Positions 1,489 through 31,269 of a DNA stretch of 64,000 bases are shown here, piece by piece. This stretch comes from an uncultured Methanosarcinales archaeon (GTDB taxonomy: Archaea; Nanobdellota; Nanobdellia; Woesearchaeales; JACPIF01). The stretch spans positions 152,246 through 216,245 of the forward strand of contig CAZRPY010000001.1 in assembly GCA_964602245.1 (NCBI GenBank), in the 5' to 3' direction. The notes beneath the pieces were generated by a model, which was not told where the DNA came from, searched no databases, and was given only the letters and a program-made list of their open reading frames with translations. Every line of letters starts with the position of its first letter. Position 1 is the stretch's first letter. The translations under genes were made by a program, and so were the position numbers.

Positions 1489-1491
1489 TTT

Positions 1492-4484: not shown

Positions 4485-4491
4485 TTTAGCA

Positions 4492-5157: not shown

Positions 5158-5159
5158 TT

Positions 5160-5474: not shown

Positions 5475-5477
5475 CTT

Positions 5478-6212: not shown

Positions 6213-6355
6213 CTTGAAAATTTAATAGCTGAAGCGTCTGGGGCTTTGCTAGTAAAATAAATATAAAGTAAGATAACTACAAGTATTAAAGCAGACATTA
6301 GCACTAGATAAACAACTGCATTTGCACCTATTTCAAAACCCTTTTTACTTTTCAT
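6209..6355 (-). CDS. Small (48 aa) archaeal pilin or flagellin-like protein, absent from the ORF track
   Basis: My translation of the minus strand 6355..6209 is MKSKKG|FEIGANAVVYLVLMSALILVVILLYIYFTSKAPDASAIKFSR*. It has a canonical class III signal (KKG|F...). Its stop overlaps the start codon of the next gene. Confidence 0.55.
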   Translation of the reverse strand: MKSKKGFEIGANAVVYLVLMSALILVVILLYIYFTSKAPDASAIKFSR

Positions 6356-6374
6356 GTTTTATTCTGTTTATTTT

Positions 6375-7622
6375 TTATTCTGGTATTATGCTGCATAATG
6401 GACCTTCCTGACCTGTTACTTTCTGGTCAGTTATCTGGCTAACTGTACTTAAATATATTGTGGAAGTTGGTCTTTGTCTCCACCAATCAACAAGTGGCAC
6501 ATATAGGTCTCTTACTCCTTGTTGTCCTATAAGAGCTCCAAAAATACCTCCTCCTATAGTTACTCCTGCTCCAATTACAATTGCTGGAATGCACAAAACT
6601 CCAGTTGCACAAGCTACTCCAGCAACTTTAGCTGCTAATAAGCCTGTTGCAGCAGCTGCGACAAATCCATAGCCACCAACTATTGCATTACAAATAGATG
6701 TAGTGCATTCTTTTGTAGGAGCACCAAAACTTATTGCATAAATCTCATTAGGCTCTATATCAGTAAGAATATATACACCTCCAGGACCAACACCTCTTTG
6801 GAGATAACTTAGATAACTAAGATCATTTTCTTTTTTAATATAGCAAGTCTCATCTCTAGGGCATTTCCAATTTGGATAGACAGTATAGTTTGGGCCAAGA
6901 TAACCTTTACTGCACTCTCCCCCATTATTTAAGCAATCAATATTACTGTAACAGCATCCTTCTCCTTTGCTAGCATGATTTTTCTTGCAGAAAGTATTTT
7001 TCTCATCAAATTCTATATTTCTTAAATCTGTTTTAATATGTTGTGTACATTCCTCTTTTTTATTTGCACAAAAACCACCTCTATCTTTGCCAAAAGTAAA
7101 GCATCTATGGGTTGTATCTTTAGCTTTGTAAGGGGTTGTTGCTAAATATTGGGTGAATTCCTCTGTAGAAATCTTTCCAGTTATCTTTGCGTTTTTCTTA
7201 ACTTTAAATACATAACATGTCTGACAATTATTAATCCAGGGACTTCCTTCCTTAAAAATATCTCCAGCTCTGCCTTCATCGTATCTTTGCCAGCAGTCTT
7301 TCATTAGATCTGCAATTGCTTTCTTTACAAGTTCCTCACTTTCTCCTTTTTTAGGAATTTCTTTCTTATCTACTGTGACACAGCCTTTTAGAGGAGCTCT
7401 TAAAGTTGCTAATCTTAAGTCTACCCCTAAATTTACATTAACTTGAATCTCGTGTCTTCTCAGATCAATATTTATCCTGCAAATTTCATCTTTAATAGCA
7501 TCATCTGCTCCTTGAAGTATTTTTGGAAAGAGTGGAAAGGTAAGGGCTACTCCAATAAATATAAGTATTAAGGCGCCAATTGTTGCTGTTAAAGCTTCTA
7601 CACCTCTTTTATTGGTTGACAT
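6375..7622 (-). CDS. Large type IV pilin-like, Cys-rich protein with a Gly/Ala-rich hydrophobic C-terminus
   Basis: The track ORF 6375..7661 begins at a TTG. The likely start is the internal ATG at 7622, giving MSTNKRG|VEALTATIGALILIFIGVAL, a canonical class III signal. The body has many Cys. The C-terminus is a Gly/Ala/Val-rich hydrophobic stretch. Confidence 0.65.
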   Translation of the reverse strand: MSTNKRGVEALTATIGALILIFIGVALTFPLFPKILQGADDAIKDEICRINIDLRRHEIQVNVNLGVDLRLATLRAPLKGCVTVDKKEIPKKGESEELVKKAIADLMKDCWQRYDEGRAGDIFKEGSPWINNCQTCYVFKVKKNAKITGKISTEEFTQYLATTPYKAKDTTHRCFTFGKDRGGFCANKKEECTQHIKTDLRNIEFDEKNTFCKKNHASKGEGCCYSNIDCLNNGGECSKGYLGPNYTVYPNWKCPRDETCYIKKENDLSYLSYLQRGVGPGGVYILTDIEPNEIYAISFGAPTKECTTSICNAIVGGYGFVAAAATGLLAAKVAGVACATGVLCIPAIVIGAGVTIGGGIFGALIGQQGVRDLYVPLVDWWRQRPTSTIYLSTVSQITDQKVTGQEGPLCSIIPE

Positions 7623-7623
7623 T

Positions 7624-7779
7624 TTATGGAAGTTTAGTTTTAAAGAAGTTTGTAATCGCAAAATATAATAGTATGATTAATAACAAAGAAATGATAAGTA
7701 TAATTGCAAATTGAGCAGCTCTAGCTCCGGATATCTCTGAATCCTGGGCTTTTTTGTTTGATAAAATCTTGTTTTTCAT
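7624..7779 (-). CDS. Small (51 aa) membrane protein, possibly pilin-like, absent from the ORF track
   Basis: My translation is MKNKILSNKKAQDSEISGARAAQFAIILIISLLLIILLYFAITNFFKTKLP*. Its stop lies 1 nt upstream of the start of the 6375..7622 gene. Confidence 0.4.
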   Translation of the reverse strand: MKNKILSNKKAQDSEISGARAAQFAIILIISLLLIILLYFAITNFFKTKLP

Positions 7780-7846
7780 AAGTTTATTACTTAAGAACTT
7801 TGTATATAAGCCTTTCTAAAGCTAGGCTTCAGTAAAAATAAGTTTC

Positions 7847-7965
7847 GTTTTGCCATCGGTTCGCATTTTGCTGTTTCTTATGATGTTGACTTTCCCCGTA
7901 AGGGACTTCCCCCTTGTCAAAGCTAAGTTGCCTTAGAAGAATGCTCGCAAAATTGATGGCAAAAC
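7847..7965 (+). ncRNA. Candidate structured ncRNA or structured repeat element, family copy 1 of 3
   Basis: The terminal inverted repeat is gttttgccatc / gatggcaaaac. The conserved strands are ggttcgcatt and gaatgctcgcaaaatt. The internal hairpin is gttgac-tttcccc-GTAA-ggg-acttccccc-tgtcaa. A TATA-like tgtatataa lies at 7801-7809 and the run ttatttttatc lies downstream. The strand was assigned from the GNRA loop and TATA orientation. Confidence 0.45.
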
Positions 7966-8109
7966 TTATTTTTATCAGAGCTTAAAGCTAAAAAGAGATT
8001 TTATCGCTAAATAAGATAACTAAAGAAATAATAAGTATAAGAATAAAGGAGCTTACTAAAATAACTGATAAAGAAATACCTTGAGCTTTAATGCTACTCA
8101 TATTAGCTA

Positions 8110-8385
8110 TTATGTTGGAATACAACACTTAGTGTTTTGGGTGTCTTTTTGGCCAGCTATAAAGCATGATGCTCCTGGAAGATAGACATTATCCTGTGGA
8201 CAATCTTGACCTGTTGGAACACATTTGCCACCTTTAGCTTGGCAGTCCTCAACGCCAACTCGGAATATAGCAATTCTTCCAGTAAATATAAGCACTAAGA
8301 TAACTAAAACTATTAAGGCTATCGCTGCAACTATAATTACATTTAAAGATAGCTCAGCTCCTCTTTTATTTGATTTTTTAAGCAT
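8110..8385 (-). CDS. Type IV pilin-like protein (91 aa) with class III signal peptide and Cys-rich C-terminus
   Basis: The N-terminus is MLKKSNKRG|AELSLNVIIVAAIALIVLVILVLIF, a textbook archaeal prepilin signal. Confidence 0.7.
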   Translation of the reverse strand: MLKKSNKRGAELSLNVIIVAAIALIVLVILVLIFTGRIAIFRVGVEDCQAKGGKCVPTGQDCPQDNVYLPGASCFIAGQKDTQNTKCCIPT

Positions 8386-8466
8386 GACAATGCCTCTATA
8401 TTTCTTTTAAACCTATTATTTGATGTATATAAAGCTTTCTATGTGATTTAAATTTATATGATTTAT

Positions 8467-8973
8467 TTAGCTACATATATCCATCACTAATGTTAAGGTT
8501 CCTGCATCTGTCTGGATATAGTTTTGTTTTGATTCCTTTTCTCCTGTGCATCTTCCATTTGTATTCTTTAGTATAACTTGGCCTGGTATCCTAGCCTCAA
8601 ATGAGTAGCTTTGATTGCCCCATGCTGTTAAAGTTGAATCAAAGATAAGGCTAATAGTGCTTTTTAAATAGTCACATGACCTTTGGTTATTTTGACATTT
8701 GAGCTGGGTATTAGGAGAGTTATAATTTTCTGCGCAATCCTTAAAGAGGTTATTTACAGAATTTCCAAAACAGTCTATAGTTGTTGTTCTTAAGATAGAA
8801 CTTAAAAGATTGGATGCTAATTGTGTTTGAGTGAATGTTTTTTTAATACTAGAGGGCTCTTTATTTACAGTGAATTGTATTATAAATAATATTCCAAGTG
8901 ATATGAGAATAACTATAACTGCTAACCCCATGATTTCCATTTGTGATTTCTTACTGGTTATTTTGATTTGCAT
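8467..8973 (-). CDS. Pilin-like or membrane-anchored secreted protein
   Basis: The N-terminus is ...SKKSQMEIMGLAVIVILISLGILFII. The start region is tandemly duplicated: atgcaaatcaaaataa occurs twice at 8958-8989. Confidence 0.5.
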   Translation of the reverse strand: MQIKITSKKSQMEIMGLAVIVILISLGILFIIQFTVNKEPSSIKKTFTQTQLASNLLSSILRTTTIDCFGNSVNNLFKDCAENYNSPNTQLKCQNNQRSCDYLKSTISLIFDSTLTAWGNQSYSFEARIPGQVILKNTNGRCTGEKESKQNYIQTDAGTLTLVMDICS

Positions 8974-9126
8974 ATTATTTTGATTTGCATAACTAGTGGA
9001 TTTCTTTGTGTTGGCGTAGTTAATGCAAATTATTTTAATATTTTTTATTGATTAATGCGAGTTATTGCTATATTATCTTTATTAGTTCGATGCAAATTAT
9101 TATTGTTTTGACTGGCTTTACTTTCT

Positions 9127-9606
9127 TTATTGAATCGGATAATAAGTAACCTCTAAAATGCCAAAATTATATTTATTGCTAACAGGATCATATAAGGATA
9201 CAGGTATTGGGGTGAACAGATAACCTGTTCCAGTAACATTCCTATCATAAATAAGCCATTCCTTTTTAATTGGATATATTTGTCTTACAATCAATTTACT
9301 GGATTCAAAATTATCATAATAGTTTACTTGTAAAGTTTGGTCAGCCTTAAGCATATTGCTCATAGCCTCTAATTTTAATATGTCTATACAGTTGTCTGTC
9401 ACAATATTATTGGAGGAGCATTGAAGTTCTGGTAAGGTAAAGGCTCTCTGGGCAACCTCTACTGCTCTTTTCTCATTTTCTTCAATTATTAAGCCTTGGT
9501 AGCTAGTTGCCTGGATTCTTGCATAAAAAACAAAGCCAAATATAACAAGCAAAAAGAAAATAAACATAACGCCTATTGTTTCTGTCATTTTAATCTGAGC
9601 TTTCAT
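9127..9606 (-). CDS. Pilin-like or membrane-anchored protein
   Basis: The N-terminus is MKAQIKMTETIGVMFIFFLLVIFGFVFY. Confidence 0.45.
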   Translation of the reverse strand: MKAQIKMTETIGVMFIFFLLVIFGFVFYARIQATSYQGLIIEENEKRAVEVAQRAFTLPELQCSSNNIVTDNCIDILKLEAMSNMLKADQTLQVNYYDNFESSKLIVRQIYPIKKEWLIYDRNVTGTGYLFTPIPVSLYDPVSNKYNFGILEVTYYPIQ

Positions 9607-9607
9607 T

Positions 9608-10675
9608 TTAATATACCTCTCTACATGACAGTCTTTGAAGTTGTTGATTTCTGGTTTTTAGCTCTGAAGAAGATTGTAAGATTAATGCTGTTTCTTGTTG
9701 AGAAATGGCAGAAGATAATTTTTCTGAATTAGATTTTAAAGATTGTAATGCATCAAGGCTTAAAGATAATTGAGTTGCACAGGTTGTATCTCCTGACTGT
9801 TGGTAAGATTTAATTAAGCTATTAGTCCTATGTATATAGATATCAGAAACAATAGACATCTGCTTAAAAGCTCTTTGCATGTTGCAGTTATATGATTTAT
9901 AATCATCTGCAAATACTGCAGCAAATACAGATTCTTTACCAAGATAGTAGCTAATGCCTGCAGGAACTGGTGACCAATAACCATTTATTTTATTATAGAA
10001 TCTTAACTCACCAAAACTTTCTAGAGAATTTCCTACTATATTAATTGCTGATACATCTTCATTATCTAGAGTAATTATATCTAAAAGACCTTCACTACCA
10101 ACTGGATCATGGTTAAAGAATACTAACCTGATTCTATAATTGCCTTCACTTTTAATATTATTGGTATCTTTTATTACATCTTTATTAAGTAGTAATTGTT
10201 TATTATTTCCTTTGACAAGAAAATTTGGAGGTAAAGACTTGTTCAGTTCTTTGGCTATAGCAGAATCGCCAATTATAACATATTTTATATTTGGGCTTGT
10301 TACCATTAGGAAATTTGAAATCCTATAAGGCATACCCCAATCTTTTGACCATGCAGTAACCTTAAAGCCTTTAATTTTACTTGGAGAGAAAGAGATTCCT
10401 GTTTGTGCAGGATTAAGATTTTCTACAGAATATCCTTCACAATTATAGCTTATTTCTTTGCCGACTAAGTCTATTATAGATGCTGTGCCTGTACTGGACC
10501 TAGCACCAGTGAATATGGTTTTTATATCAGACCTGACTTTTGATGATACTTTTACCTCTGAGATGCTTTTTTGCCTTTCAGCTATACCTATAAAGAACAT
10601 AAGGATAATGCCACCTATTATTAAAATAAATATCCAGTTAAATTGTATCTCAACAAAACCTTTATTACCGAGCAT
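9608..10675 (-). CDS. Type IV pilin-like protein with class III signal peptide
   Basis: The N-terminus is MLGNKG|FVEIQFNWIFILIIGGIILMFFI. Confidence 0.6.
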   Translation of the reverse strand: MLGNKGFVEIQFNWIFILIIGGIILMFFIGIAERQKSISEVKVSSKVRSDIKTIFTGARSSTGTASIIDLVGKEISYNCEGYSVENLNPAQTGISFSPSKIKGFKVTAWSKDWGMPYRISNFLMVTSPNIKYVIIGDSAIAKELNKSLPPNFLVKGNNKQLLLNKDVIKDTNNIKSEGNYRIRLVFFNHDPVGSEGLLDIITLDNEDVSAINIVGNSLESFGELRFYNKINGYWSPVPAGISYYLGKESVFAAVFADDYKSYNCNMQRAFKQMSIVSDIYIHRTNSLIKSYQQSGDTTCATQLSLSLDALQSLKSNSEKLSSAISQQETALILQSSSELKTRNQQLQRLSCREVY

Positions 10676-10680
10676 TTTGA

Positions 10681-11187
10681 TTAGGTCCAGCTAGAGAATT
10701 CTACATAGCTACCCTTACCTTCTAGCTTTAGAGCAATTTTGCCAAAAATAACATTTTGGCAGAAGTAATGCTCTTTTGGTATCCTTATATTTCCTATGTC
10801 TATAGAGATAACGTTTGTGTCCTTTGATATTAAAAACATGTTTTTACTTATTCTATCTTTCCAGCTGTTGCAGATAACTGGATTATAATCCTGATTACCT
10901 AGAGTACAAATATTTGTTGATTCCTGGCCAGTATATGAAAGATCAATAAAACATATCTTGTCATATTTATTTGGGATGCTTACTTCTTCCTTAATGACTG
11001 TGCCATAATCTGAAGTAGTCTTTTTAACAGCTGACGATAATTGTTTACCAAGCTGAAGAATAACTACTGTATCTGCTTTTTCACCCAGATTTCTAATAGA
11101 ATTATACCCATAGACCATTATTAAAGAGAATAATACTATGGCTAAAATGTAGATAAAAACTTCTCCAATTACTTGGGCATTTTTCAT
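10681..11187 (-). CDS. Pilin-like or membrane-anchored protein
   Basis: The N-terminus is MKNAQVIGEVFIYILAIVLFSLIMV. Confidence 0.45.
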   Translation of the reverse strand: MKNAQVIGEVFIYILAIVLFSLIMVYGYNSIRNLGEKADTVVILQLGKQLSSAVKKTTSDYGTVIKEEVSIPNKYDKICFIDLSYTGQESTNICTLGNQDYNPVICNSWKDRISKNMFLISKDTNVISIDIGNIRIPKEHYFCQNVIFGKIALKLEGKGSYVEFSSWT

Positions 11188-11196: not shown

Positions 11197-14100
11197 TCAC
11201 TTTTTCCTCTTTTTTATTAAGATGTCTAATTTCTCAAATGAATTCTTGCTGGTTTTTAATTTTGGAACTTCTTTTTGAGCTTCCTTCTTTATCTCTGACT
11301 TCTTTTGCTCAGGCTTCTTAATCTCTGATATTTTCTCTTTACTTATCTCCTCTTCTTTTTTGCCTAGGCCAAAAATATCTAAGATACTACTTTTTGTCTT
11401 AAACTTCTCTTTCATCCTAAGCTCAAATAATTTATGTTTCTCCAGTTCTAACTGTGGTTTTTTAGTTGGCCTTAATTTAATTTCCTCCATTTTTTGATAT
11501 TGAGGCTGTTGAACTTTTGGTTTTGTTATTTGGAATTGGGGCAAACTTATTCTTTGAATTGATTTTAGTTTGTAGCCGTATTTTTTATATCCAAGAATTG
11601 CACCTGCAATAATTAAAATAAAGGCTAAGCTATATATTATATAGGGAAGAATTCTTGAGCTAGGGTGAGAATTCTTGTCTAAAGGATCTGTGCCTGCTAA
11701 TATTTCCACATTATCTCTATAGCCGTCATCGTCTGTGTCTGCTTTGAAAGGACCTGTTTTGGCTCTCTGTTCTTCAATATTATTTAGCTCATCTGTGTCA
11801 GTATCTTCTTCTCCGTCGTTTATACCATTATTATCTGAGTCTGGTAAAAGTTTATTTAAATTATGAAGGTCTTCCCACTCATTTGATAAGCCATCTCCAT
11901 CTATGTCTTCATCACAGATATCTCCAACGCCATCTTTATCCAAATCCTCTTGCTCAGGATTCTCTTCTTCAAGACAATTATCTCTTGAATCTGGAATGCC
12001 GTCTTCATCTTCATCTGGCTCCAGTAATACACACTTATTATGGATACAGTCTGCACCAATTGTGCAATCATCTTTAATATTGCATTGCCTACCTGCTTCA
12101 CACCTTAAAGGACAATAAATGCCACAATCTATGTCACCTTCGCCAGAATCAAGAACGTTATTTGAGCAAGGGCTGGGCTTTTTGCATACACCAAACTCAC
12201 AGTTGCCTGAGGAGCAATCTAAATTTTGGATGCATTTGGCTTCAAGGCTGCATTTATTTTGGCATGCGCTGCCACAATCTATGTCTGTTTCTTGGCCGTT
12301 TTTTATTCCATCATTACATGCTTCTTTTTTGCATTTCTTTGTTGATGGATGGCAAAAGCCAGAGCTACAATCAGAATTTTCTATGCATTTTGCATCTTCT
12401 TGGCAACCCTGGCATGAGCCACCGCAATCTATATCTGTTTCAGTTTGATCTTGTATATTGTTTGTGCAGTGGCTTGGCTTCTTTGAAATATCAATAGTAA
12501 CTCCATTACTTTCAAGTATTTTACTTGTCAAGCCAACTATATTTGTAGAATCTACTTTAAAGACATACTTTGTCTTATCAGTTAGATTGAGAGGCCTATT
12601 TGAGCTGTCTTTAGTAATTACTACAAATTCTCCACCTACTGTACTTTGGGTTTGGTTGATAATTGAGGATCTAGACGGCAGGGTTTCAAGGCTGTATCTG
12701 TAGTATTTAACCAAACTTTCATTTTCCTCTGCAAGCCATTTCACTCTTAGCCTGTCAGTTTCCCAAGTAAATTCTGGATCTTCTACTAGAGTGCTGCTAT
12801 CATTTACATATAACATTGCAGGGGGTGTTGTGTCAATTGTAAAAGCAATAGTAGCTATATTAGAAAAGACTCCTGCTACTATACATCTTGCATAATACGT
12901 ATGTGTTATTCCCTGCTGTAGATTTGCAACTGTTCTTTGATGCCTATAGCCAATTTCCCCAAAAGAATTTGAGATTGAATCTTGAGCTTGGCCATAATAG
13001 CATTGGGCTTTTTTATTTGTAGATATATCTAGGATTACATTTGATGTATTCGAATAACGAGGGGTATTAACCTGGATAGTTAAAGGCTCACTTTCATTGA
13101 TTTTGAAGGTAATAATTGAGGTATTGGATAACAAACCTGCTTCATTCTCACAGGAAACAAAATAAGTATATTCTTGCTTTGCTCTTGTAACAGTTAAATT
13201 TTGGCTATGGACCTTTTGATAATTTTCCTTATCTGGGAAAAAATTAGGCATTTCAGGATAGATTTTCTTTGAATCATCATATCTGCAAATAGTGTTGTCA
13301 TCTGTCTGAACTTTAAGCACTGTTTTTAGATCTGATTCTATTATTATTTCTGGTTGTGCAAAAGCTGCCAGAATAATAGGTGGTGTTTTGTCTATAGCAA
13401 CTTTAAACTCCTTTTCTATAACTCCCCAGACACCATCATCACATTTTACAAATAAAGCATGGTCTTTTTGATCGCCTTCTGGTATATCCTTAAAATTGTT
13501 AATTCTGTGAATTAAGCCTCCTGTTGCAGAGAAGTCTTTCATATTCTCAAAAATTGTTCCAGGCAAATCCATGATATATTTGCATTTGGCATCATTATCA
13601 GTGCCTATTGTTATGTTAAATACAGATTCCTTAGAAACTCCAGTTTTTGGGATTAACATAGTAATAACCGTTGGGACAGCATTTACTATAAAGCTAAAAC
13701 TGCCATTAACAGAATTTCCAGCATAATCAGTTGCCTTGACAAAGACTGATTTTAAGCCATCGCTAAGGTTTAGCTTTATTTGATGAAATCTATTATCAAG
13801 AGTAGTAAAATTGTCCTTTAAGTCAGATGTGAGTCCAGTAACTATAACATTATTCAGGTCAACTTCCTTAGTGAAGTTTAATGTTAAAACAAAGTTTGTA
13901 GATTTTATAGTAATATTATTCGGAGAGCCTGTAAACTTTGGTGGATTATTGTCAATATTAATTGTTATTACCCTTGGAGATTTCATAAATCTTCCAAAAT
14001 TGTTCCTTGCCATAATAGTAAGGTTATATTGGCCATCTGGCAATGGAGAGTTTGGAATAAAAGAATGGATAGTATTATTCTCGAAAACTTGTTGAGTAAG

Positions 14101-16080
14101 AGGTATACTAGTCTTATTTTCACCTATAAAACTAGAGAAGCTAATTATAGAAAAGTCTGAGAAAGTAATATTAATTATTGGTTTTATGTTGTTCGTGTAG
14201 AAAATTCTATTTGCAAATTTATCGCCTTGAACTGAAACCTTTAGTATAACAGGTCCAGTGACATTAGGAGAGGCATTAAAATTTAATGTCTTAATTACCC
14301 CTAAATTATTTGAAGGATCTCTTGTATAGAATTTTAATATATTTTCTCCAGGACTAAGGGTTAGGATTTGTTTAACTCCATCAAAAACCTTTAAGTTATT
14401 AACTATTAAGAAAGTATTAGTAGTTATTATTGGGAATTTTGAGCCATCAGTGCAGCTTTCAGTTAAAGTATTACAGATAAATATTTGATAATTGCTAGTA
14501 ACTCTTCTAGCAGAACCTATTTTTTCTGTTTTGTCTAAGATGTCTATATTGAATTGAGTTGGTATTCCTTCTTCAAATGTTGTTGGCACTATATTGGTAT
14601 CAGGAGGAAAGTAGTCTGCTTCACATTGTAAATTAGTGCAATCCCTATCTTGGCTGTAGTCTGCACTTTTGCTACATTCTCCAAATACTGAAGCGCAAAC
14701 GCCTATCCTACATTTGTCATTACTTCTAGAGGTTATGTTATTGGTAGAAGGATCTATTGAAGCCTTATTGAAGGAAAGGCATTCTTCGTTACTATAGTCC
14801 TTACATGTAACTTTTTCGCAGCTTAGGCTTTCCCCATTCTTAAAGAAGCATGGAAAGTCTTGAGTTGAAAGAGCTTCTGATTTCTCCTGAGTACAAATGT
14901 CAAATACTGAATTATAAGCTTTTAATGTTGGTGAGCTTGGGCTTCCCTTTTCAACACACCATTGGCAATTTTCCTTGTTCTTGTTAATACAAACACCTAT
15001 TCCAAGAGCTTGTATTGTATCTTTCCATAAGCAACCTGAGATTTGGCAGTTATCTGTTTCACATGCTGATTTTGTTTTATAATCATAACAATCCATGTTG
15101 GGATCACAGTTGTAGCATGTGTTGACTATTGTTGAAGATCTGTCAAAGAAGCAATATCTGTAATTTTGCTGAGTACCTTCACATCTTTGCTTATCTGTAA
15201 ACAGCCCAAAAGGATTATTAGTTGTATTTGTGCATTGAGTTTTTATTGCACATCTTGCTACACTTCCATCAGAAATACATGCACAAGATTGTCCTGTAAA
15301 GCAGTCTGCTGTTCCTGAGTTGCAATTTACTACTGGACTACTAAGTATATTTTCTTCATTACAGAAAAATGCTTTATTAAATCTTGAGGAAAAGGTATTT
15401 AATATTTCATTATTAAAGTTACTTGCTGTAAAGCCCTTTTTTGAGATAAGATAGGAAGAGTATTGGTTATAATATCCTTTATTTATGCAGAATTTGTCTT
15501 GGGTATTTCTATTAAAGCATTCAAGGTTACCTATTGAGAAATTAGAGCTAATTAATGAGGATTTGTCTTGAGTCCTGAAATAGCCTGTAACTTTATATGA
15601 ATAGTCCTTATCGAATAATAAGTCATCTGATTGATCAGTAAAGAAGTTGTCAGTAGTTGTGCCAATTAATTTAAAGTTACAAGTTGGCAAGTCACATCTT
15701 GAAATATTATAGAACTCTGCTGGACAATCAGATATCCATGTTAGAGTTACCTGCCTTTTACCTTGAACTGTAATTTTCTCAAGATTTTTAAGCTTTGGAG
15801 AGAAAGAAGGCTCATTGCAAGAAGTAAGATTAAGGCTTAATGTCGGGCTTCCAGAGCCGCAAACACTTGGACAGGTTTGCCTGCTGGAGGGGATTACAAA
15901 CCTAAACTGACAATTTTCTCTGCTTACAAAAGAATTTGGAGTTGCTATATTGCCATTACAACAACAGCCTGCATCTCCTGCTTTAACTAGATTAGATAAA
16001 GAAAGTAAGATAATTAACGATAAGAATATAATAGCTATATAAACTAAACTATTTCCTATAACTTTTATTTTGGCTTTCAT
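11197..16080 (-). CDS. Giant (1627 aa) cell-surface adhesin-like protein with signal peptide, Cys-rich repeats, thrombospondin type-3-like Ca-binding repeats and a C-terminal TM anchor with a Lys-rich tail
   Basis: It has an N-terminal signal. There are three roughly 48-aa repeats, each containing the motif ETDIDCGGxC...DCSSGxC. Asp-rich motifs DKDGVGDICDEDIDGDGLSNEWE and DSDNNGINDGEEDTDTDE are TSP3-like DxDxDG. A C-terminal hydrophobic segment ILPYIIYSLAFILIIAGAILG is followed by a K/E-rich tail. Confidence 0.7.
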   Translation of the reverse strand: MKAKIKVIGNSLVYIAIIFLSLIILLSLSNLVKAGDAGCCCNGNIATPNSFVSRENCQFRFVIPSSRQTCPSVCGSGSPTLSLNLTSCNEPSFSPKLKNLEKITVQGKRQVTLTWISDCPAEFYNISRCDLPTCNFKLIGTTTDNFFTDQSDDLLFDKDYSYKVTGYFRTQDKSSLISSNFSIGNLECFNRNTQDKFCINKGYYNQYSSYLISKKGFTASNFNNEILNTFSSRFNKAFFCNEENILSSPVVNCNSGTADCFTGQSCACISDGSVARCAIKTQCTNTTNNPFGLFTDKQRCEGTQQNYRYCFFDRSSTIVNTCYNCDPNMDCYDYKTKSACETDNCQISGCLWKDTIQALGIGVCINKNKENCQWCVEKGSPSSPTLKAYNSVFDICTQEKSEALSTQDFPCFFKNGESLSCEKVTCKDYSNEECLSFNKASIDPSTNNITSRSNDKCRIGVCASVFGECSKSADYSQDRDCTNLQCEADYFPPDTNIVPTTFEEGIPTQFNIDILDKTEKIGSARRVTSNYQIFICNTLTESCTDGSKFPIITTNTFLIVNNLKVFDGVKQILTLSPGENILKFYTRDPSNNLGVIKTLNFNASPNVTGPVILKVSVQGDKFANRIFYTNNIKPIINITFSDFSIISFSSFIGENKTSIPLTQQVFENNTIHSFIPNSPLPDGQYNLTIMARNNFGRFMKSPRVITINIDNNPPKFTGSPNNITIKSTNFVLTLNFTKEVDLNNVIVTGLTSDLKDNFTTLDNRFHQIKLNLSDGLKSVFVKATDYAGNSVNGSFSFIVNAVPTVITMLIPKTGVSKESVFNITIGTDNDAKCKYIMDLPGTIFENMKDFSATGGLIHRINNFKDIPEGDQKDHALFVKCDDGVWGVIEKEFKVAIDKTPPIILAAFAQPEIIIESDLKTVLKVQTDDNTICRYDDSKKIYPEMPNFFPDKENYQKVHSQNLTVTRAKQEYTYFVSCENEAGLLSNTSIITFKINESEPLTIQVNTPRYSNTSNVILDISTNKKAQCYYGQAQDSISNSFGEIGYRHQRTVANLQQGITHTYYARCIVAGVFSNIATIAFTIDTTPPAMLYVNDSSTLVEDPEFTWETDRLRVKWLAEENESLVKYYRYSLETLPSRSSIINQTQSTVGGEFVVITKDSSNRPLNLTDKTKYVFKVDSTNIVGLTSKILESNGVTIDISKKPSHCTNNIQDQTETDIDCGGSCQGCQEDAKCIENSDCSSGFCHPSTKKCKKEACNDGIKNGQETDIDCGSACQNKCSLEAKCIQNLDCSSGNCEFGVCKKPSPCSNNVLDSGEGDIDCGIYCPLRCEAGRQCNIKDDCTIGADCIHNKCVLLEPDEDEDGIPDSRDNCLEEENPEQEDLDKDGVGDICDEDIDGDGLSNEWEDLHNLNKLLPDSDNNGINDGEEDTDTDELNNIEEQRAKTGPFKADTDDDGYRDNVEILAGTDPLDKNSHPSSRILPYIIYSLAFILIIAGAILGYKKYGYKLKSIQRISLPQFQITKPKVQQPQYQKMEEIKLRPTKKPQLELEKHKLFELRMKEKFKTKSSILDIFGLGKKEEEISKEKISEIKKPEQKKSEIKKEAQKEVPKLKTSKNSFEKLDILIKKRKK

Positions 16081-17327
16081 TTTTTAGGTTTTCCCTCTGT
16101 CTCAAAAACAAAATCTTGATAATCTTCTAGTAGTTCGTCGCTAACTTTTACTGTTAATAACCAATTATTGTTAAATGGTGGAGTGTCTTGCGAGCTAATA
16201 GTGTAAGGAAGGCTTGGATTATAAGAATAACTGAGAGAATCTTCATCAGGGTCATAAGATGACTTTGGATTAGTATTTTGCTGAAATATTTGACTTCCAT
16301 CTCTAATTATAACTAGAGGAGAATTGGCACTGAAAGTAATTTCATCTCCTTCTCTAAGAGTTGGAAGAGCTTGCTCAATTATATAATGAAGGGCAGGATA
16401 CCTGTTTTGAATACTAAACTGGAATGTAAATGGCCTGCCATATAAAGTTGAAGCTGGATCTGTAATGGATAATACATCATCTTTTTTGAATAAATTTCTT
16501 GATAGGCTTACTTCCATTACATCAAAGTTTACCTGGCTTGCATCAAAATTTAATGAATTGGAGTCTGTATCTATTATAGTTCTTGCTAGATTATAAATAA
16601 GTTTAAGCCTAATTTTAAGTGGGACAGAAAAGTCTTCTATTTTTGTTATTTCTTCTCCAGTTACTTTATTAATTATTATTGGAATCTTGGCGTTAGCTAC
16701 TATATGGTTATCTCCAATTATTACTGAACTAGTTACATTTGTATAATTTATATTATAAGTTTTAAATGACTGGAAATTAAGGCATGTGCTGGCATTATTG
16801 TTAATAAAATGCTCTAATTGAGATAAAATAGATATGTTTGAGCCAGAAAGGTCTGGAAGAGAATTTTGACCATAATAACCATTATTAAGGTCTATTGTGG
16901 TGTAAGTTGTGTCAGTATAAGGAAATTCTGGCCATGGATAGCTTGGTGGTTGCCAAAAATATAATTGGCTAATATCTGAGCTTGGGCGTTTAAGGCCATA
17001 GCTAACTTTATAGCCTGAATATAATATGTGGTCATTTCCTAGTTCCTTAGTATCTGGAATAAAGCCACCTTGGGATTTATAGATAAAACTGCCTTGTTTT
17101 CCTATGAAATCTAAGGCTTTAAAAGCTGTTTCTTCAATGCATTTATTTACAAATTCTTTAATACTGGCAATTCCTATAGCTGTTTGCTGGCTTTCTGTAG
17201 ATTGCCTGCCAAGCTTTTTCTCTGTCTTGAAAAGAACTAAATAAAATAGGAATATAAGCATAGCAAAGATAACTATGCCTATTATTATCATTATCGTTAA
17301 TTGAGATTTAGTATAAATCTTTACCAT
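16077..17327 (-). CDS. Membrane-anchored hypothetical protein (416 aa)
   Basis: It has an N-terminal TM helix (LTIMIIIGIVIFAMLIFLFYLVLF). It overlaps the giant gene by 4 nt. Confidence 0.55.
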   Translation of the reverse strand: MVKIYTKSQLTIMIIIGIVIFAMLIFLFYLVLFKTEKKLGRQSTESQQTAIGIASIKEFVNKCIEETAFKALDFIGKQGSFIYKSQGGFIPDTKELGNDHILYSGYKVSYGLKRPSSDISQLYFWQPPSYPWPEFPYTDTTYTTIDLNNGYYGQNSLPDLSGSNISILSQLEHFINNNASTCLNFQSFKTYNINYTNVTSSVIIGDNHIVANAKIPIIINKVTGEEITKIEDFSVPLKIRLKLIYNLARTIIDTDSNSLNFDASQVNFDVMEVSLSRNLFKKDDVLSITDPASTLYGRPFTFQFSIQNRYPALHYIIEQALPTLREGDEITFSANSPLVIIRDGSQIFQQNTNPKSSYDPDEDSLSYSYNPSLPYTISSQDTPPFNNNWLLTVKVSDELLEDYQDFVFETEGKPKK

Positions 17328-17361: not shown

Positions 17362-20052
17362 TTAAGTTGACCTTAACTTAGATGTGAGATCTTGCCATAC
17401 TTCATTGCCTATTTGATATCTGCTAGAGACTGTTACTATGGATTCTGATTGATTACAGAAGAGGATGTTTACTCCTGCTGAAGCTCTTTCCTTGTTTATC
17501 TCCTGGACTAGTGAGCAGACATCAATAGATGGGTTGCTGTATTGTATGCTTAAATAAGGATCATTTCTAATTATCTCTATTACACCTTTAACTGACTTGT
17601 CTCCAGAGCTAGATATATACAATCTGCTAAACTTCTTTGTTGATTGCAAGAAAGATAAGTCAACTTGGACTCCTTCATAAGAGGGCTTTGTCTCTTGGAT
17701 TTTGCCAAAAATCTTGGAAAAAGGACTCTTCAAGAGTAGGATAAATTTATCAAAGAAATTTATTTGTGGATTTAGGTTTATTGATGTTTTGCTAAATACT
17801 ATTGCTTTTATTTTATTATTATACCAAGCCAGTGGGCTTGTGCAAGAATGAAATTGTCCGTCATTTGCTAGTGCATTATTGCAGTAACTTATAGGTAATT
17901 CAAATGCTTCAAGAATTGAAGGATCTTTATTAATAATAGTGTTTATTGTTGTTCCAACTATTATATTGCTCTTAGTTTTTAAAACACAAAAGTTATTAGA
18001 GCAAGGTAATTGAGTAGCGTTTATGGCACAACTAGTTATTAAATCTGTTTTTACATTAAAGCCACTTGGCAAGGAATATTCAAAATTGTTTAGTACATTA
18101 GAAAAGATATCGCAATAAAGTGTATAATTACCTAGACTAGTACTTTCAGCACTGTCAAGCATTGCTAATGCTAGTAACTTAGTTCTAGCACTCCAATTTC
18201 CTTCTTCACAATAATTATCTCCTATATACTGAGTGTCATTAATGCATTGGATATTGTTATTTAAAGCTGCTGAGAAATCTTGGGTAAAGTTCTCAATTAA
18301 GCCATTTTTACTGTTAGAGCTAGTTGGATTAACTAAGCATTGAGTTTTTTTGGGGCAATAGCCTTGAGCACTTTCATCCGAATTGGTTTTTAATGGTGAT
18401 TCTGACCATTCTCCTTTAATGCATCTATTTCCATTAATAGCACTGCTTATGGCTGAAGTAGACTGATCATTTAAGCATTTAGAGCCATCCCAGCATTGAG
18501 TTGCTGTACAGCACTCTTCTTGAGGAACACTAGAATCTGTCCAACCAAGTTTTTTTAGGGAATCTCTAACTTCTGCAGATCTGTTCCATATACCTCTGGA
18601 TGAGCAAAATGAATGTTGGCCCTGCTGAAAGCCATTTAGTATTACTGCGCAAAACTGGTTGTTATGTACTAACTCTTTGGCTGTAATAGAATCTTTTAAT
18701 GCTTTTAAACTTGGCTTTGAATCTGTATTACAGCCTTCAAATGAGCCATTTGCATTAATAACCTCTTTCTGAATAGGATTGGTGTTGCTTGTAACATAAT
18801 TCTTGTTGAATACAGGAATACCATTCCAACAGGCTATGCTTTTATTAGGTTCGTTATAATACTCTTCAGAATCGTCGCCACAGCATCTTGTGCCTGTCCA
18901 TGTATATTGGCCATTAGATGTACAAGCCTGAGCACTTGAATCTCCATCTCTCCACTGACCATTATCACATAGGAAGTTATTGGTTGTATTTGACCACTCG
19001 CCTGCGGAATAGCACTTATTGAGAAAATTACAGTCAGAACTGCTTGAGCAGCAAGATTCTGTATCATCAATCAGGTCTCCTTTGCTTACAGTGATATATT
19101 CTTCAAAATCATCGCCACAGCATTTATCTGGGTTTTGTGAGCCGCCTATTGACCACTCTGTGCCATTACAAGAATTGCACCAATCTTCTCCTGTGTCTAA
19201 GTCAACTGGAGTAAAAGAGCAACTTCCTGAGGAGCAGCCATAATCTCTAGCACTGCAAACACCGCCATTTCCACATTTGCCATCACACTTTGGCTGAGAG
19301 GCTATATTTGGTCTATTAGGAGCTAATGAATCATAGATATTACAGTCTACTGTTTTAGTTTCTGACTTTAAGCCATTACATCTTGAAGTTGTTAGAGTGT
19401 TGCCTGAACAAGAGCTTGTTAAGCTTCTGTCTTCTCCGCATTTACCAGTATCTGAGCCTGAGATAATACAGCCTTCATTGTCTATAATTGTAATTTGGCC
19501 AAAATCGTTATATTGAGTAGGACCTATGCAATTATCTACACCACAGTTTCCTTGATCCTTTCCTTTGTGGCAGCCTCTAGTAGCTACACAATAATTGTCT
19601 GAGAGCTTGTCACAGCATCTCTTTTCAGTGTCCCAGAATGAGTTTGCTATGCAGGAGCATGCTGAGCTTGAATCATCTGGGTTTTTCTGGCCACTAGTTG
19701 AGGTTGTCTGAGGGACTGTACACTTACACTGTGCAGGATTGCTTTCTATGCAGACCTGTTGTGAGTAATAAACTTTAAATTCGTCTATGGTTAATGTGCC
19801 AAAGGATGCGAACTCATCTCTTTGGTCATAACAGCCAGGGCTGTATGTTAAGCATGGAGGTGGTGTCTGGCAAGTTCCTGAAATACATACTAAGCCAGAG
19901 TTACAACTAGAGCCGCCACAGCACATCTGACCATTGCCACCGCATGGAGGGGGAGATGGAGGAGGAGGCTCGCCTTTGCTCATGACTATTGAAGATAAAA
20001 CAAGAATAAATGTGAAAATACAGATTACTTGTAAAACTCTTTTTTTATTCAT
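17362..20052 (-). CDS. Secreted Cys-rich protein (896 aa) with a Pro-rich linker after the signal peptide
   Basis: It has a signal peptide followed by GEPPPPSPPPCGGNGQMCCGGSSC. The motif CCGDDxEEY occurs twice, and W-containing Cys modules (CDNGQWRD, CIKGEWSE, CEEGNWSA) also repeat. Confidence 0.6.
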   Translation of the reverse strand: MNKKRVLQVICIFTFILVLSSIVMSKGEPPPPSPPPCGGNGQMCCGGSSCNSGLVCISGTCQTPPPCLTYSPGCYDQRDEFASFGTLTIDEFKVYYSQQVCIESNPAQCKCTVPQTTSTSGQKNPDDSSSACSCIANSFWDTEKRCCDKLSDNYCVATRGCHKGKDQGNCGVDNCIGPTQYNDFGQITIIDNEGCIISGSDTGKCGEDRSLTSSCSGNTLTTSRCNGLKSETKTVDCNIYDSLAPNRPNIASQPKCDGKCGNGGVCSARDYGCSSGSCSFTPVDLDTGEDWCNSCNGTEWSIGGSQNPDKCCGDDFEEYITVSKGDLIDDTESCCSSSSDCNFLNKCYSAGEWSNTTNNFLCDNGQWRDGDSSAQACTSNGQYTWTGTRCCGDDSEEYYNEPNKSIACWNGIPVFNKNYVTSNTNPIQKEVINANGSFEGCNTDSKPSLKALKDSITAKELVHNNQFCAVILNGFQQGQHSFCSSRGIWNRSAEVRDSLKKLGWTDSSVPQEECCTATQCWDGSKCLNDQSTSAISSAINGNRCIKGEWSESPLKTNSDESAQGYCPKKTQCLVNPTSSNSKNGLIENFTQDFSAALNNNIQCINDTQYIGDNYCEEGNWSARTKLLALAMLDSAESTSLGNYTLYCDIFSNVLNNFEYSLPSGFNVKTDLITSCAINATQLPCSNNFCVLKTKSNIIVGTTINTIINKDPSILEAFELPISYCNNALANDGQFHSCTSPLAWYNNKIKAIVFSKTSINLNPQINFFDKFILLLKSPFSKIFGKIQETKPSYEGVQVDLSFLQSTKKFSRLYISSSGDKSVKGVIEIIRNDPYLSIQYSNPSIDVCSLVQEINKERASAGVNILFCNQSESIVTVSSRYQIGNEVWQDLTSKLRST

Positions 20053-20654: not shown

Positions 20655-21023
20655 ATGGGTTTAGTAAGTTTTATAAAAAGCAGTATAATTACTAGATTTA
20701 TGCTAGGGGTTAATATTATTGGCAAAATTAATGGTAAGAAGTTGGATTTATCAAATTTGGAAAAGAAAATAAGCAAGGCTACTAAACTGACTGGGCTTAA
20801 GATTGTCAAGAAGGTTTTTTATAAATTTGGCTCTAAGAAAGAAGCTACTTATTGCTTCGTTTTATCTCAGTCTCACTTAATAATACATACGTGGCCTGAG
20901 AAGAATATAATAGTTTTTGATTTATTCACATGTGGGAATAAAAATAAAGGGTTGAAAGCTATTAAAAATATAGCTAAATACACAAAAGGAACTATAAAAG
21001 ATATAAAAATAATAGAATTATGA
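20655..21023 (+). CDS. speH: S-adenosylmethionine decarboxylase proenzyme (pyruvoyl-dependent, SpeH/SpeD class)
   Basis: It is about 120 aa with the core HLIIHTWPE...FTCG, typical of small archaeal and bacterial AdoMetDC. It is translationally coupled to speE by an ATGA overlap. Confidence 0.7.
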   Translation: MGLVSFIKSSIITRFMLGVNIIGKINGKKLDLSNLEKKISKATKLTGLKIVKKVFYKFGSKKEATYCFVLSQSHLIIHTWPEKNIIVFDLFTCGNKNKGLKAIKNIAKYTKGTIKDIKIIEL

Positions 21024-22621
21024 AATCTAAACCAATTTTAAAGGGTTTTGAAGCAGATTATTGGATAATCTTTCTTGTTATGTTTTTAACTGGATTTTCA
21101 AGTTTGCTTTATGAGATTGTATTATTACTTGTATTCTCTACAATAATTGGAGCTACTGAGATTTCTCTGGCTATAATCTTGTCTTCATTCTTATTGGGTC
21201 TTGCAATTGGTGGCTTGCTTGGGGGGTTTATATCAAAAAAGAATTTTAATCATATTCTCATTTTAATTTTTATAGAAATCATTATAGCTATATTTGCTTT
21301 TAGTGCTATGTTTCTCATGAAAAATATTGCCTTAATACAGTCAAGATCATTTTTACAATTTTTATTTATAATAATTCTTGTTCTAATTCCTACCTTCTCA
21401 ATGGGAATGGAAATTCCAATAGCCGTGAGGATTTTATCTGCTAGAAGGAAAAAACATCCAACTGGTTTTGTTTATTTCAGTGATACTTTGGGAGGTGTTT
21501 TAGGCTCACTATTTTCTGGACTGTTGGTTATTCCTGTGCTTGGTTTTCATGGAGCAATGATTTTTGGAGGGATATTAAATATTATTGCTGCTTTAATGGG
21601 TATGCTGCTAAATATAAAATTGAGGTTAAGAAAGTTATTGTCTATTTTAATTATGATAATTCTGATTATATCAACTATATTTGTTATCAATAGCAGGGAA
21701 AGATTTTATAATCTTGAATTGGATTTTTTTGATACTATTTATAATAAAAAGGATTTCTATTATGCTAAGACTATTTATTCAGTTATAAGCCCTTTTCAGT
21801 CTATTATAATAGCTAACTCACCTTATTATGGGAATCAATTGTATATTAATGGAGAGCTACAAGTCTCTGATTATGATTCTTTAATTTATCATGAATACTT
21901 AGTTTTGCCTTCAATAGCTGCTCATCCTCATCCTAAGAAAGTTTTAGTTATAGGAGGTGGTGATGGAGGGGCTTTATATCAGATACTTAAATATAATTTC
22001 ACTAAGATTGAGCATGTTGAGTTGGATGAGAAGGTAATAGAGGTTTCAAGGAGTTATTTGAAAAATGTGCATAACGGCTCACTAGATAATCCTAGAGTAA
22101 ATACTATAACTGAAGATGGTAGGTATTATTTGGCTAATAATCAGGAAAAATATGATATAATTGTTATAGATTTGCCAGACCCATTAAAATTAGAATTGTC
22201 TGCTTTATACTCACAAGAATTCTATCAGTTGGTCTATAACTCTTTAGAGGAGGATGGCATTATGGTGACTCAGGCAAATTCTCCATATCATTATCTCATA
22301 GCTCATGCTTCTATTTATAAAACTATTAAAAGTGTTTTTCCAAATGTTAAAAGCTATACTATTCCTATTTCTTCGATGAGTAGCATGGGTTATATAATAG
22401 CCTCCAAAAATATAATATTAGAAAATGTTAGCAATAGACAAAAGATAGATGGTAAATGGTATAATAGTAATGACCATGAGAAAATATTTTATGAGCCTGA
22501 ATTTTTAAGAGAATTCTTAGAAAATAATAGCATATTAATTTCTACAGACACTAACCCAATAATACATATCTATAGTCAACCTAATTATTACGTTAAGGGT
22601 ATATTAGATATAGAAAAATGA
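21020..22621 (+). CDS. speE: Spermidine synthase with an N-terminal multi-TM membrane domain
   Basis: The C-terminal half has VLVIGGGDGGALYQIL and DIIVIDLPDP, which are aminopropyltransferase motifs. The N-terminal roughly 230 aa are highly hydrophobic with multiple TM segments. Confidence 0.8.
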   Translation: MKSKPILKGFEADYWIIFLVMFLTGFSSLLYEIVLLLVFSTIIGATEISLAIILSSFLLGLAIGGLLGGFISKKNFNHILILIFIEIIIAIFAFSAMFLMKNIALIQSRSFLQFLFIIILVLIPTFSMGMEIPIAVRILSARRKKHPTGFVYFSDTLGGVLGSLFSGLLVIPVLGFHGAMIFGGILNIIAALMGMLLNIKLRLRKLLSILIMIILIISTIFVINSRERFYNLELDFFDTIYNKKDFYYAKTIYSVISPFQSIIIANSPYYGNQLYINGELQVSDYDSLIYHEYLVLPSIAAHPHPKKVLVIGGGDGGALYQILKYNFTKIEHVELDEKVIEVSRSYLKNVHNGSLDNPRVNTITEDGRYYLANNQEKYDIIVIDLPDPLKLELSALYSQEFYQLVYNSLEEDGIMVTQANSPYHYLIAHASIYKTIKSVFPNVKSYTIPISSMSSMGYIIASKNIILENVSNRQKIDGKWYNSNDHEKIFYEPEFLREFLENNSILISTDTNPIIHIYSQPNYYVKGILDIEK

Positions 22622-26960: not shown

Positions 26961-26973
26961 GGCTTAGATATAG

Positions 26974-27002
26974 CACTGGTCACTGGACATGTTCACGTGA
27001 GG
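26974..27002 (+). promoter_or_regulatory. Conserved motif cactggtcactggaca-N4-cacgtgagg immediately upstream of a TATA-like box for mcm
   Basis: A near-identical copy lies at 51553-51581 upstream of the cas4-like gene. It is followed by ttttatac. Confidence 0.4.
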
Positions 27003-27056
27003 CTTTTATACTAGAGAGTATTAGTTATTTAGGATTATTATGATTACAGATAAAGT

Positions 27057-29090: not shown

Positions 29091-29091
29091 A

Positions 29092-31264: not shown

Positions 31265-31269
31265 TACAA

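Follow-up and report, generated by a model that had tools for sequence, protein, structure and literature searches.

Which part of a woesearchaeal cell surface would be built from a very long, Cys-rich protein, and what would such a protein do there? The question is raised by a gene in a stretch of 64,000 nucleotides from contig CAZRPY010000001.1 (GenBank assembly GCA_964602245.1, positions 152,246 to 216,245 of the forward strand; labelled as an uncultured Methanosarcinales archaeon and placed by GTDB in the Woesearchaeales, JACPIF01), the whole of which is referred to here as the window. The gene lies at 11197..16080 on the minus strand, as do all its parts described below, and encodes 1627 amino acids plus a stop codon (11197-11199), with an ATG start according to the open reading frame (ORF) list. 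Judged from its sequence, the product, called here the giant protein, is a membrane-anchored, Cys-rich surface protein of a DPANN archaeon for which calcium binding is predicted. On balance, we consider it probable, with moderate confidence, that the giant protein serves in a surface attachment apparatus, as the part made of stalk and head that is anchored in the membrane. The locus is of interest because few uncultured archaea are as widespread as Woesearchaeota, which are believed to live attached to other cells.

The giant protein belongs to a family that spans this lineage. Among 5.8 billion proteins searched, 56 relatives were found, one of them 100% identical and 55 homologues, with identities of 28-100% and lengths of 1.0-2.7 thousand amino acids, all either unnamed or called only "hypothetical" or "Ig-like domain-containing". 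The named homologues and the titles of 80 related loci refer to Candidatus Woesearchaeota, Nanoarchaeota or Nanoarchaeia, the nearest relative found being encoded in a groundwater Woesearchaeota metagenome-assembled genome (L007, 66% identity). A common plan of Sec signal, GCC motif, Cys modules, thrombospondin type-3 (TSP3) loops, transmembrane (TM) helix and charged tail is seen in 52 of the 56 homologues, and a search with back-translated head motifs found the head encoded in at least 149 species-representative genomes. Mean identity of the giant protein to its homologues is about 35% overall, and conservation reaches at least 90% in 189 columns of the family alignment, which include almost every one of the 74 Cys; the protein is therefore under purifying selection.

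An anchored chain of small domains

By its sequence, the giant protein is exported by the Sec pathway and sits in the membrane as a type I protein with a single C-terminal anchor. Outward from the membrane, a basic tail with an FxKLxxI/polybasic end and the TM helix are followed by six TSP3 loops and three Cys modules and, further out, by seven beta-sandwich domains, five of them homologous and immunoglobulin-like (Ig-like), and a Cys-rich head that includes a fibronectin type III (FN3) domain. About ten small domains in a row make up the ectodomain, with the conserved head at its end. The five homologous Ig-like repeats, the two FN3 domains of the protein and the Sec signal peptide had been absent from a first-pass annotation of this DNA, made from the letters and ORFs of the window.

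Both ends of the protein fit such an orientation. Residues 1-34 (15979..16080) form a Sec-type signal peptide by hydropathy, beginning MKAKIK and continuing through a hydrophobic core to VKA followed by GD, and the homologues carry classical n-h-c signals that end in AxA directly before a conserved GCC(C) motif. With VKA before GD in the window protein and Sec-type AxA in the homologues, no class III (type IV pilin) signal was found on the giant protein itself. Besides the N-terminus, the only strongly hydrophobic segment is 1476-1499 (Kyte-Doolittle 19-residue mean up to 2.41), within which lies the single C-terminal TM helix IIYSLAFILIIAGAILGY (residues 1477-1499, 11584..11652), with KKYGYKLK after it. 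A C-terminal TM helix and charged tail are retained in 52 of the 56 homologues, the other four having no C-terminal TM helix in the hydropathy scan. The tail itself (residues 1500-1627, 11200..11583) is 128 residues long, rich in Lys and Glu and basic (isoelectric point 10.0, 38 K+R, 18 D+E), and because it is basic the C-terminus is placed in the cytoplasm. The anchor and the K/E-rich tail had both been described in the first-pass annotation and are upheld here. Most of the tail is poorly conserved in the family, except for a recurring motif, [ED][DN][VI]FxKLxx[IL] with a polybasic C-terminus, which is often doubled. In the window it takes the form NSFEKLDILIKKRKK at 11200-11244, L1618 is at least 90% conserved, and this tail end motif may serve to dock a partner in the cytoplasm.

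Next to the membrane helix lies an acidic region of TSP3 loops (residues 1355-1472, 11665..12018, isoelectric point 4.05), delimited by Pfam, phmmer and a motif scan. Six loops of the DxDxDG type start at residues 1356, 1379, 1392, 1414, 1426 and 1448, so the Asp-rich runs first reported as TSP3-like are indeed present, and both hidden Markov model (HMM) and PDB searches recover the similarity. As the C-terminal segment also behaves as a TM helix, neither of the two outcomes named at first pass as refuting that annotation has come about. The first unit (1355-1404) is of the canonical, Cys-containing kind, with C1369 and C1389 flanking an NPEQED spacer, and loops of the bacterial type come after it. 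Pfam TSP_3 (PF02412) matches two stretches marginally (25.4 bits against a cut-off of 25) and TSP3_bac (PF18884) falls below its cut-off (22.7 bits against 25). In phmmer searches of the PDB, residues 1353-1410 match COMP (3fby, E = 1.3e-21) and thrombospondin-2 (E = 5e-13). Weak structural matches from Foldseek include the B/BSP domain of Bap (probability 0.97-0.98 over 45 amino acids, E = 0.2-0.4), the thrombospondin signature domain 2rhp and the Capnocytophaga OmpA structure 5wtl. The loops would be expected to bind Ca2+ and to stiffen into a rigid membrane-proximal segment.

Does this likeness mean that the protein was acquired from eukaryotes, as a homologue of thrombospondin or COMP? The best PDB sequence matches are indeed to COMP and thrombospondin-1/2, and the Pfam TSP_3 match includes the Cys pair. 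However, thrombospondin-type PDB matches are confined to residues 1327-1421, and the likeness proper covers only about 50 residues (1353-1410), which align again and again with the numerous repeats in COMP. Pfam and NCBIfam gave no match to TSP_C, EGF or a coiled coil at E <= 0.1. The canonical, animal-like Cys-containing unit occurs only in the subclade of the window protein (P0001-P0003 and P0024), whereas the majority of the family has bacterial-type repeats only (DTDGDGLxDxWE...NPNDPxDA..., TSP3_bac). TSP3 repeats are also known from OmpA and Bap proteins of bacteria, and the GC content and codon use of the gene agree with the rest of the archaeal window. A eukaryotic origin is effectively refuted by these observations. 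The giant protein shares the TSP3 repeat without being a member of the thrombospondin family, and it bears no sign of eukaryotic origin. What it has in common with COMP, thrombospondin-1/2 and the bacterial OmpA-like and Bap proteins is the tandem DxDxDGxxDxxD loop, one copy with the canonical Cys pair and NPxQxD spacer, and a presumably Ca2+-loaded, non-globular "wire". It differs from thrombospondins in having only about six loops, which adjoin a TM helix, and in lacking the TSP_C lectin-like domain, the EGF repeat and the oligomerization coil. Of the initial comparison with extracellular adhesion proteins of eukaryotes and bacteria, the shared TSP3 repeat stands, while membership of the thrombospondin family does not, and the host is archaeal.

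Beyond the loops, residues 1205-1355 (12016..12468) consist of three tandem eight-Cys modules, delimited by Smith-Waterman comparison and invariant columns at 1205-1254, 1255-1304 and 1305-1355. The three tandem units had been recognized at first pass with a period of about 48 amino acids, which is measured here as 50. Pairwise z-scores between modules are 6.8-13.5, and none of 200 shuffles reaches the observed score. The family consensus is CxDxxxxxxETDIDCGGxCxxCxxGKxCxxxxDCxxGxCxxxxC, in which the eight Cys and E, D, D and G are invariant in each module; a wider form of 44-50 amino acids reads CxDGxxNGxETDxDCGGxCxxCxxGxxCxxxxDCxSGxCxxxxC. AlphaFold modelled residues 1195-1480 with a mean predicted local distance difference test (pLDDT) score of 85.6, the modules reaching 83-93. 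Modules at the same position in different orthologues are more alike (0.46-0.51) than those at other positions (0.35-0.44), and the triplication is therefore old within the family.

The module turns up far beyond this protein. When 1.84 billion cluster representatives were searched exhaustively by HMM, 14,176 of them, from bacteria and archaea, matched the module profile at E <= 1e-3, of which 1,436 did so at E <= 1e-30; this replaced a word-indexed search with the 44-column profile, which returned 5 fragments only and was uninformative. Arrays in other proteins reach 39 copies, and the few named carriers belong to Myxococcota, Bradymonadia and Woesearchaeota. Neither Pfam nor NCBIfam has a model that matches the module in the giant protein, or on other proteins with 13-28 copies. 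Given this number of matches and the lack of a Pfam or NCBIfam model, the module is a common extracellular building block yet to be named. A literature search for the motif returned only unrelated toxin and peptide papers.

Is the module a knottin, Dickkopf-N or disintegrin domain? No significant sequence or fold match to any of these was found. Against the PDB, the second half of the profile (CxxxxDCxSGxCxxxxC) gave non-significant matches to scytovirin (0.17), Dumpy (0.18) and Dkk4 (1.5), in a range of weak likenesses that extends to knottin toxins (E = 0.17-10), and Foldseek matches to Dkk4, knottins, colipase and ADAM were weak (E >= 0.57). The first half, CxDGxxNGxETDxDCGG, recalls what we take to be the disintegrin motif, CGNGxxExGEECDCG. 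The eight-Cys unit of 44-50 amino acids with its invariant E..D.DCG motif is distinct from all of these and unnamed.

Opposite the modules lie two mutually overlapping antisense ORFs of 109 and 111 amino acids (12119..12497, plus strand), which had been put down at first pass to repeats at the DNA level. This explanation fails, as the module DNAs are only 51-57% identical to one another and Tandem Repeats Finder detects no tandem array in them. The ORFs lie opposite conserved Cys-module codons in the longest antisense stop-free stretch of the giant gene, where GC content is 40% against 34% for the whole gene, and the "PQSMSxS" repeats in their translations are what ETDIDCG codons give when read in reverse. 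They are explained by the higher local GC content and by Cys, Gly and Asp codons, which give no antisense stops; as genes they were rejected, being by-products of codon composition.

The stalk proper (residues 495-1200) comprises seven beta-sandwich domains, S1-S7, which with the FN3 domain of the head make eight in the protein. S1 (residues 495-600, 14281..14598) is defined by AlphaFold strands at model residues 461-566 (pLDDT 88-95). It is followed by five related Ig-like repeats, S2-S6, of about 95-110 amino acids each (residues 601-1092, 12805..14280), recognized by hhalign, Big_13 and a SiiE profile match. Pfam Big_13 (PF19077) matches residues 628-710 (28 bits against a cut-off of 27), and the four repeats related to this one were revealed by hhalign between family sub-alignments, with probabilities of 93.8% for S2-S3, 90.8% for S3-S6, 95% for S4-S5, 96.3% for S4-S6 and 98.6% for S5-S6. 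Homologues carry Big_13 or Big_3_3, and each of the last three Ig-like repeats has a conserved Cys pair (833/880, 932/977 and 1027/1066). S7 (residues 1093-1200, 12481..12804) is a membrane-proximal domain of the FN3 type, based on a match of the family profile (positions 1158-1268) to titin FN3 (E = 6e-7); as Pfam fn3 matches nowhere in the giant protein, its FN3 membership is at the level of the fold. The matches to Big_13, the SiiE BIg domain and titin FN3, together with the AlphaFold model of residues 34-600 (mean pLDDT 86.3), give substance to the long beta-rich stretches of the first-pass annotation.

Long tandem Ig-like stalks with Ca2+-dependent rigidity are also known from Salmonella SiiE and staphylococcal Bap, to which the family profile matches at E = 9.5e-6 (SiiE BIg, 2yn3) and E = 3e-3 (Bap B domain, 7c7r, the latter in the TSP3 region). 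However, SiiE leaves its cell through a type I system and sortase anchors Bap to the wall, whereas the giant protein is Sec-exported and has its own C-terminal TM anchor. It also has far fewer repeats, and it is set apart by its Cys-rich head and Cys modules.

At the distal end, the head begins with an N-terminal Cys-rich cap (residues 35-92, 15805..15978), recognized from its conserved Cys. The cap starts with GDAGCCCNG, has eight residues that are at least 90% conserved (G38, C39, C40, C41, C57, C70, C74 and C88) and is modelled with low pLDDT (46-74). A beta-sandwich of the FN3 type follows (residues 93-185, 15526..15804), with AlphaFold strands at model residues 64-149. Its structural matches in the PDB are FN3 domains, namely adnectins, monobodies and FN10 (Foldseek probability 1.0, TMt 0.67-0.78, root-mean-square deviation 2.2-3.1 A), and the family profile also matches the Fn3-like structure 3mpc. 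The remainder, residues 186-494 (14599..15525), is a Cys-rich alpha/beta core with 30 Cys, defined by conservation and AlphaFold and modelled with pLDDT mostly above 85. It is the best-conserved part of the protein, with 42-54% mean identity over residues 301-500, and a CxxCx5C pattern lies within its most conserved stretch (residues 322-350). A likeness of residues 266-361 to factor Xa, seen with a fragment (E = 3e-4), was lost once the family profile was used; the catalytic motifs are missing, and the likeness was discarded as spurious.

So many Cys invite the question of whether the protein is a surface-tethered scavenger, whose head and modules bind metals or capture nutrients. In its favor are the 74 conserved Cys, including the CxxCx5C pattern, the probably anaerobic nature of the organism, in which free thiols could persist, and weak matches to MopE (Cu-binding) and CBM60 of an orthologue, in locus L006, of the neighboring Cys-rich protein Z described below. 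However, the number of Cys is even, their spacing is like that in the disulfide-bonded knottin, Dickkopf and disintegrin domains, AlphaFold returned compact, confident models, and no metal-binding family in Pfam or NCBIfam matched, which makes scavenging a very improbable role. In the proposed attachment apparatus, the Cys modules and the head would instead be held together by disulfide bonds, and the stalk would hold the head tens of nanometers off the membrane.

A fixed cassette with pilin-like partners

The giant gene does not stand alone. The 4 nucleotides at its ATG are shared with the stop of the gene upstream, A (16077..17327, 416 amino acids), and 9 nucleotides separate its end from gene C (10681-11187, 168 amino acids), which is followed by D (9608-10675, 355 amino acids), E (9127-9606, 159 amino acids) and F (8467-8973, 168 amino acids). 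Directly before A lies gene Z (17362..20052), which encodes a secreted protein of 896 amino acids with 63 Cys. All are on the minus strand, and because the genes overlap or nearly abut, a single transcript is suggested. Z has no similarity in Pfam or the PDB, and no homology between Z and the giant protein was found. The F family has 173 homologues, all of them hypothetical.

The same gene order was found in six genomes inspected gene by gene (the window and loci L001 and L003-L006), in which A has about 350-465 amino acids and C, D, E and F about 160, 340, 160 and 170. For a wider survey, the ORFs of 80 species loci were searched with an HMM for each of A, C, D, E and F. The five genes occur together, in the same order and on the same strand, in 50 of these. 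Where the giant ORF is complete and the downstream sequence long enough, as in 53 loci, order and strand are kept in 47, and no locus of the 80 has another gene order. Gene A was found in 76 of the 80 loci and an orthologue of Z directly upstream of A in 71, so the unit is taken to be Z-A-giant-C-D-E-F. Locus tags in two further genomes likewise place F four genes from the giant gene.

What links A, C, D, E and F is the N-terminus: a short basic stretch, a small residue (A, G or S), Q (or, in D, F or M) and about 20 hydrophobic residues. The motif takes the form of [KR]x[AGS] followed by Q, or [AGS] followed by F, before a hydrophobic helix; in A it reads TKS followed by QLTIMIIIG, and other examples from the cassette are KKSQ followed by MEIMGLAVIVILISLG and NKG followed by FVEIQFNWIFILIIGG. 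We take this pattern to be the archaeal class III (type IV prepilin) signal. It is kept in all five families across the six genomes, the exceptions being four gene calls that begin within or just ahead of the hydrophobic stretch and probably have mis-called starts, and outside it the proteins are only 27-43% identical between these genomes.

An alternative suggested by this arrangement is a pilus-associated adhesin like PilY1, in which a type IV-like filament would be initiated by the five pilin-like proteins and carry the giant protein at or near its tip. As we understand the fimU-pilVWXY1 layout, it likewise sets a large, non-pilin, Sec-exported protein with Ca-binding sites among four to five genes for pilin-like proteins, and the gene string around the cassette contains more small pilin genes of about 90 amino acids. 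However, the giant protein has no homology to PilY1 and no vWA or beta-propeller domain in Pfam, and it is archaeal. Its conserved TM helix and cytoplasmic tail would bar travel on a filament tip unless cleaved, and the 80 loci hold no assembly ATPase or platform gene nearby. We regard a PilY1-like role as improbable, and favor an attachment apparatus in which the giant protein stays anchored in the membrane.

Islands of "dark matter" in DPANN genomes have been described in which unannotated genes with signal peptides and predicted divergent pilins lie alongside surface proteins, and the example loci include FlaI/TadC, whereas the cassette of the giant protein has none nearby (Makarova, Wolf and Koonin 2019, PMC6393860). 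Searches of the literature on DPANN thrombospondin, pilin, Cys-rich and surface proteins found, in the papers that could be searched, no description of the giant-protein family or of the cassette.

The cassette is part of a longer string of about 18 minus-strand genes (703-11187 and 16077-17327), nearly all of which have a class-III-like signal or a membrane anchor and are without annotation; orthologous strings occur in L001, L003 and L004. Downstream of F, a small pilin gene of about 90 amino acids (8110-8385) has KRG followed by AELSLNVIIVAAIALIV (KRG before AELS), and other signals in the string read KRG followed by VEAL (6375-7661) and KKG followed by FEIG (6209-6355). A 104-amino-acid pilin-like protein (5160-5474, minus strand) carries a TSP_3-like Ca-loop motif, LDHDNDGVFDTIDPC, with a Pfam TSP_3 match below cut-off (E = 1.9e-4), and its counterpart in L001 (21851-22141) has a similar motif.

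Attachment apparatus or envelope layer

The chief rival to an attachment apparatus is an envelope role of the surface-layer (S-layer) type, in which the giant protein would be the main envelope glycoprotein of Woesearchaeota, its head forming an outer canopy over a lattice stabilized by Ca2+. Several observations are consistent with this, including the occurrence of the head in such a large number of species genomes and its conservation, the stable length of the protein (stop-to-stop ORFs across the species loci have a median of 1712 amino acids) and the fixed position of the gene, with the gene for RNase P p30 adjoining the cassette in five other genomes. S-layer-like proteins are mentioned beside DPANN-specific secreted proteins (PMC6393860). 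Of the 25 N-glycosylation sequons in the giant protein, 20 lie in the stalk. A Sec signal, Ig-like domains, a C-terminal TM helix and an acidic Ca-binding region are, to our general knowledge, common in archaeal S-layer proteins. However, the sequons are not enriched (25 observed against 22 +/- 4 in shuffles), archaeal S-layer proteins are normally Cys-poor and fast-evolving, and no known S-layer protein was matched in Pfam, NCBIfam or the PDB. Five pilin-like partners and a second Cys-rich protein are also not obviously needed by a lattice protein.

A comparison may be made with S-layer and stalk glycoproteins of the tetrabrachion type from Staphylothermus marinus, which are presumably, like the giant protein, large and Sec-exported, with a long stalk and a C-terminal anchor. 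The gene of the giant protein is apparently single-copy at a fixed locus. However, no similarity in sequence or fold to the tetrabrachion type was detected, and the giant protein is very Cys-rich, has a beta-sandwich rather than a coiled-coil stalk and is encoded with a pilin-like cassette. An S-layer-type role is thus somewhat unlikely in our view, although were it true, it would supply the missing envelope protein of the lineage.

In the attachment apparatus that we favor, the products of the cassette would co-assemble into one surface structure, and this structure would mediate attachment to a host cell or to a surface. An adhesin role for the giant protein may reasonably be inferred from its sequence. 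As the head is its best-conserved part and the gene is fixed in the cassette, a conserved structural or attachment apparatus fits better than a fast-evolving, host-specific adhesin.

Several findings weigh against this interpretation. Host-specific adhesins usually vary at the tip, whereas the head is the most conserved part of the giant protein; this conservation would fit a head that binds a conserved ligand or a conserved partner, for which Z and the pilin-like proteins are possible candidates. The presence of 74 extracellular Cys, for which disulfides are assumed, is unusual in a probably anaerobic organism. Besides its FN3 domain, the head gave no Foldseek match to its core fold in the PDB or in BFVD (viral). 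The term pilin-like is well supported as a motif and covers the N-terminal motifs of A, C, D, E and F only, since these proteins gave no match in Pfam, NCBIfam or PDB sequence searches. PDB sequence and profile searches with Z, A, C, F and the small pilin of 91 amino acids also returned nothing. Finally, no GspE/FlaI Walker motif, TadC or prepilin peptidase was found in the window (64 kb) or, for the 80 loci, within about 8 kb.

A broader proposal, which we advance tentatively and with less confidence than the attachment role of the giant protein, is that the cassette specifies a previously undescribed surface organelle across Woesearchaeota. Two large Cys-rich proteins would make up this organelle together with five pilin-like subunits. 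It would be built with no dedicated motor encoded nearby and would be central to host attachment. The Cys unit would be a new and very widespread extracellular domain family.

It is already known that large multidomain surface proteins with Ig-like and TSP3 domains exist and that DPANN genomes are rich in them. New here are the lineage-wide family, the fixed seven-gene cassette with pilin-like partners and no nearby motor genes, the head without a structural match, and the triplicated Cys unit of a very large family that lacks a Pfam or NCBIfam model. Present in nearly every species examined, the seven-gene cassette is a concrete candidate for the machinery by which Woesearchaeota attach, or for their envelope, with the giant protein as its putative anchored core. 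A model for the Cys module would improve the annotation of thousands of large surface proteins.

Other genes of the window

The window has a GC content of about 32% and contains genes for TBP, MCM, both PolD subunits, Cdc6/Orc1, Hjc, a tRNA splicing endonuclease, aIF2-beta and aRF1, a set that marks it as archaeal. An exact DNA search for the window in the species-representative contigs gave no match, so this genome is not one of the representatives. Beside the cassette, a replication and transcription block at 26400-35069 comprises the PolD large subunit, aIF2-beta, a SpoIIM-like protein, an OB-fold protein, MCM and TBP, and the same block lies beside the cassette in JACPMR010000015 (L001, 1-7567).

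Two enzymes of the window appear to be directed at peptidoglycan. A membrane-anchored M15/VanY D-Ala-D-Ala peptidase (1492-2592, minus strand) is encoded at the end of the string of pilin-like genes, and a protein of 847 amino acids with an SLT lytic transglycosylase domain is encoded at 57230-59773 (minus strand). Woesearchaeota are thought to be episymbionts, some of them of bacteria, and peptidoglycan-directed proteins have led to the proposal that small Woesearchaeota attach to bacteria (PMC8204110). The two enzymes fit an episymbiotic lifestyle or attachment to bacteria. Directly downstream of the SLT protein, three consecutive genes for proteins of 318, 314 and 346 amino acids (54094-57228, minus strand) have no Pfam match.

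On the plus strand, a Cas4/PD-(D/E)XK-type nuclease gene lies at 51612-52472, and no other cas genes were found in the window. Elsewhere in the window, an S-adenosylmethionine decarboxylase is encoded ahead of a spermidine synthase of 533 amino acids fused to an N-terminal, multi-pass membrane domain like that of the major facilitator superfamily (20655-22621, plus strand).

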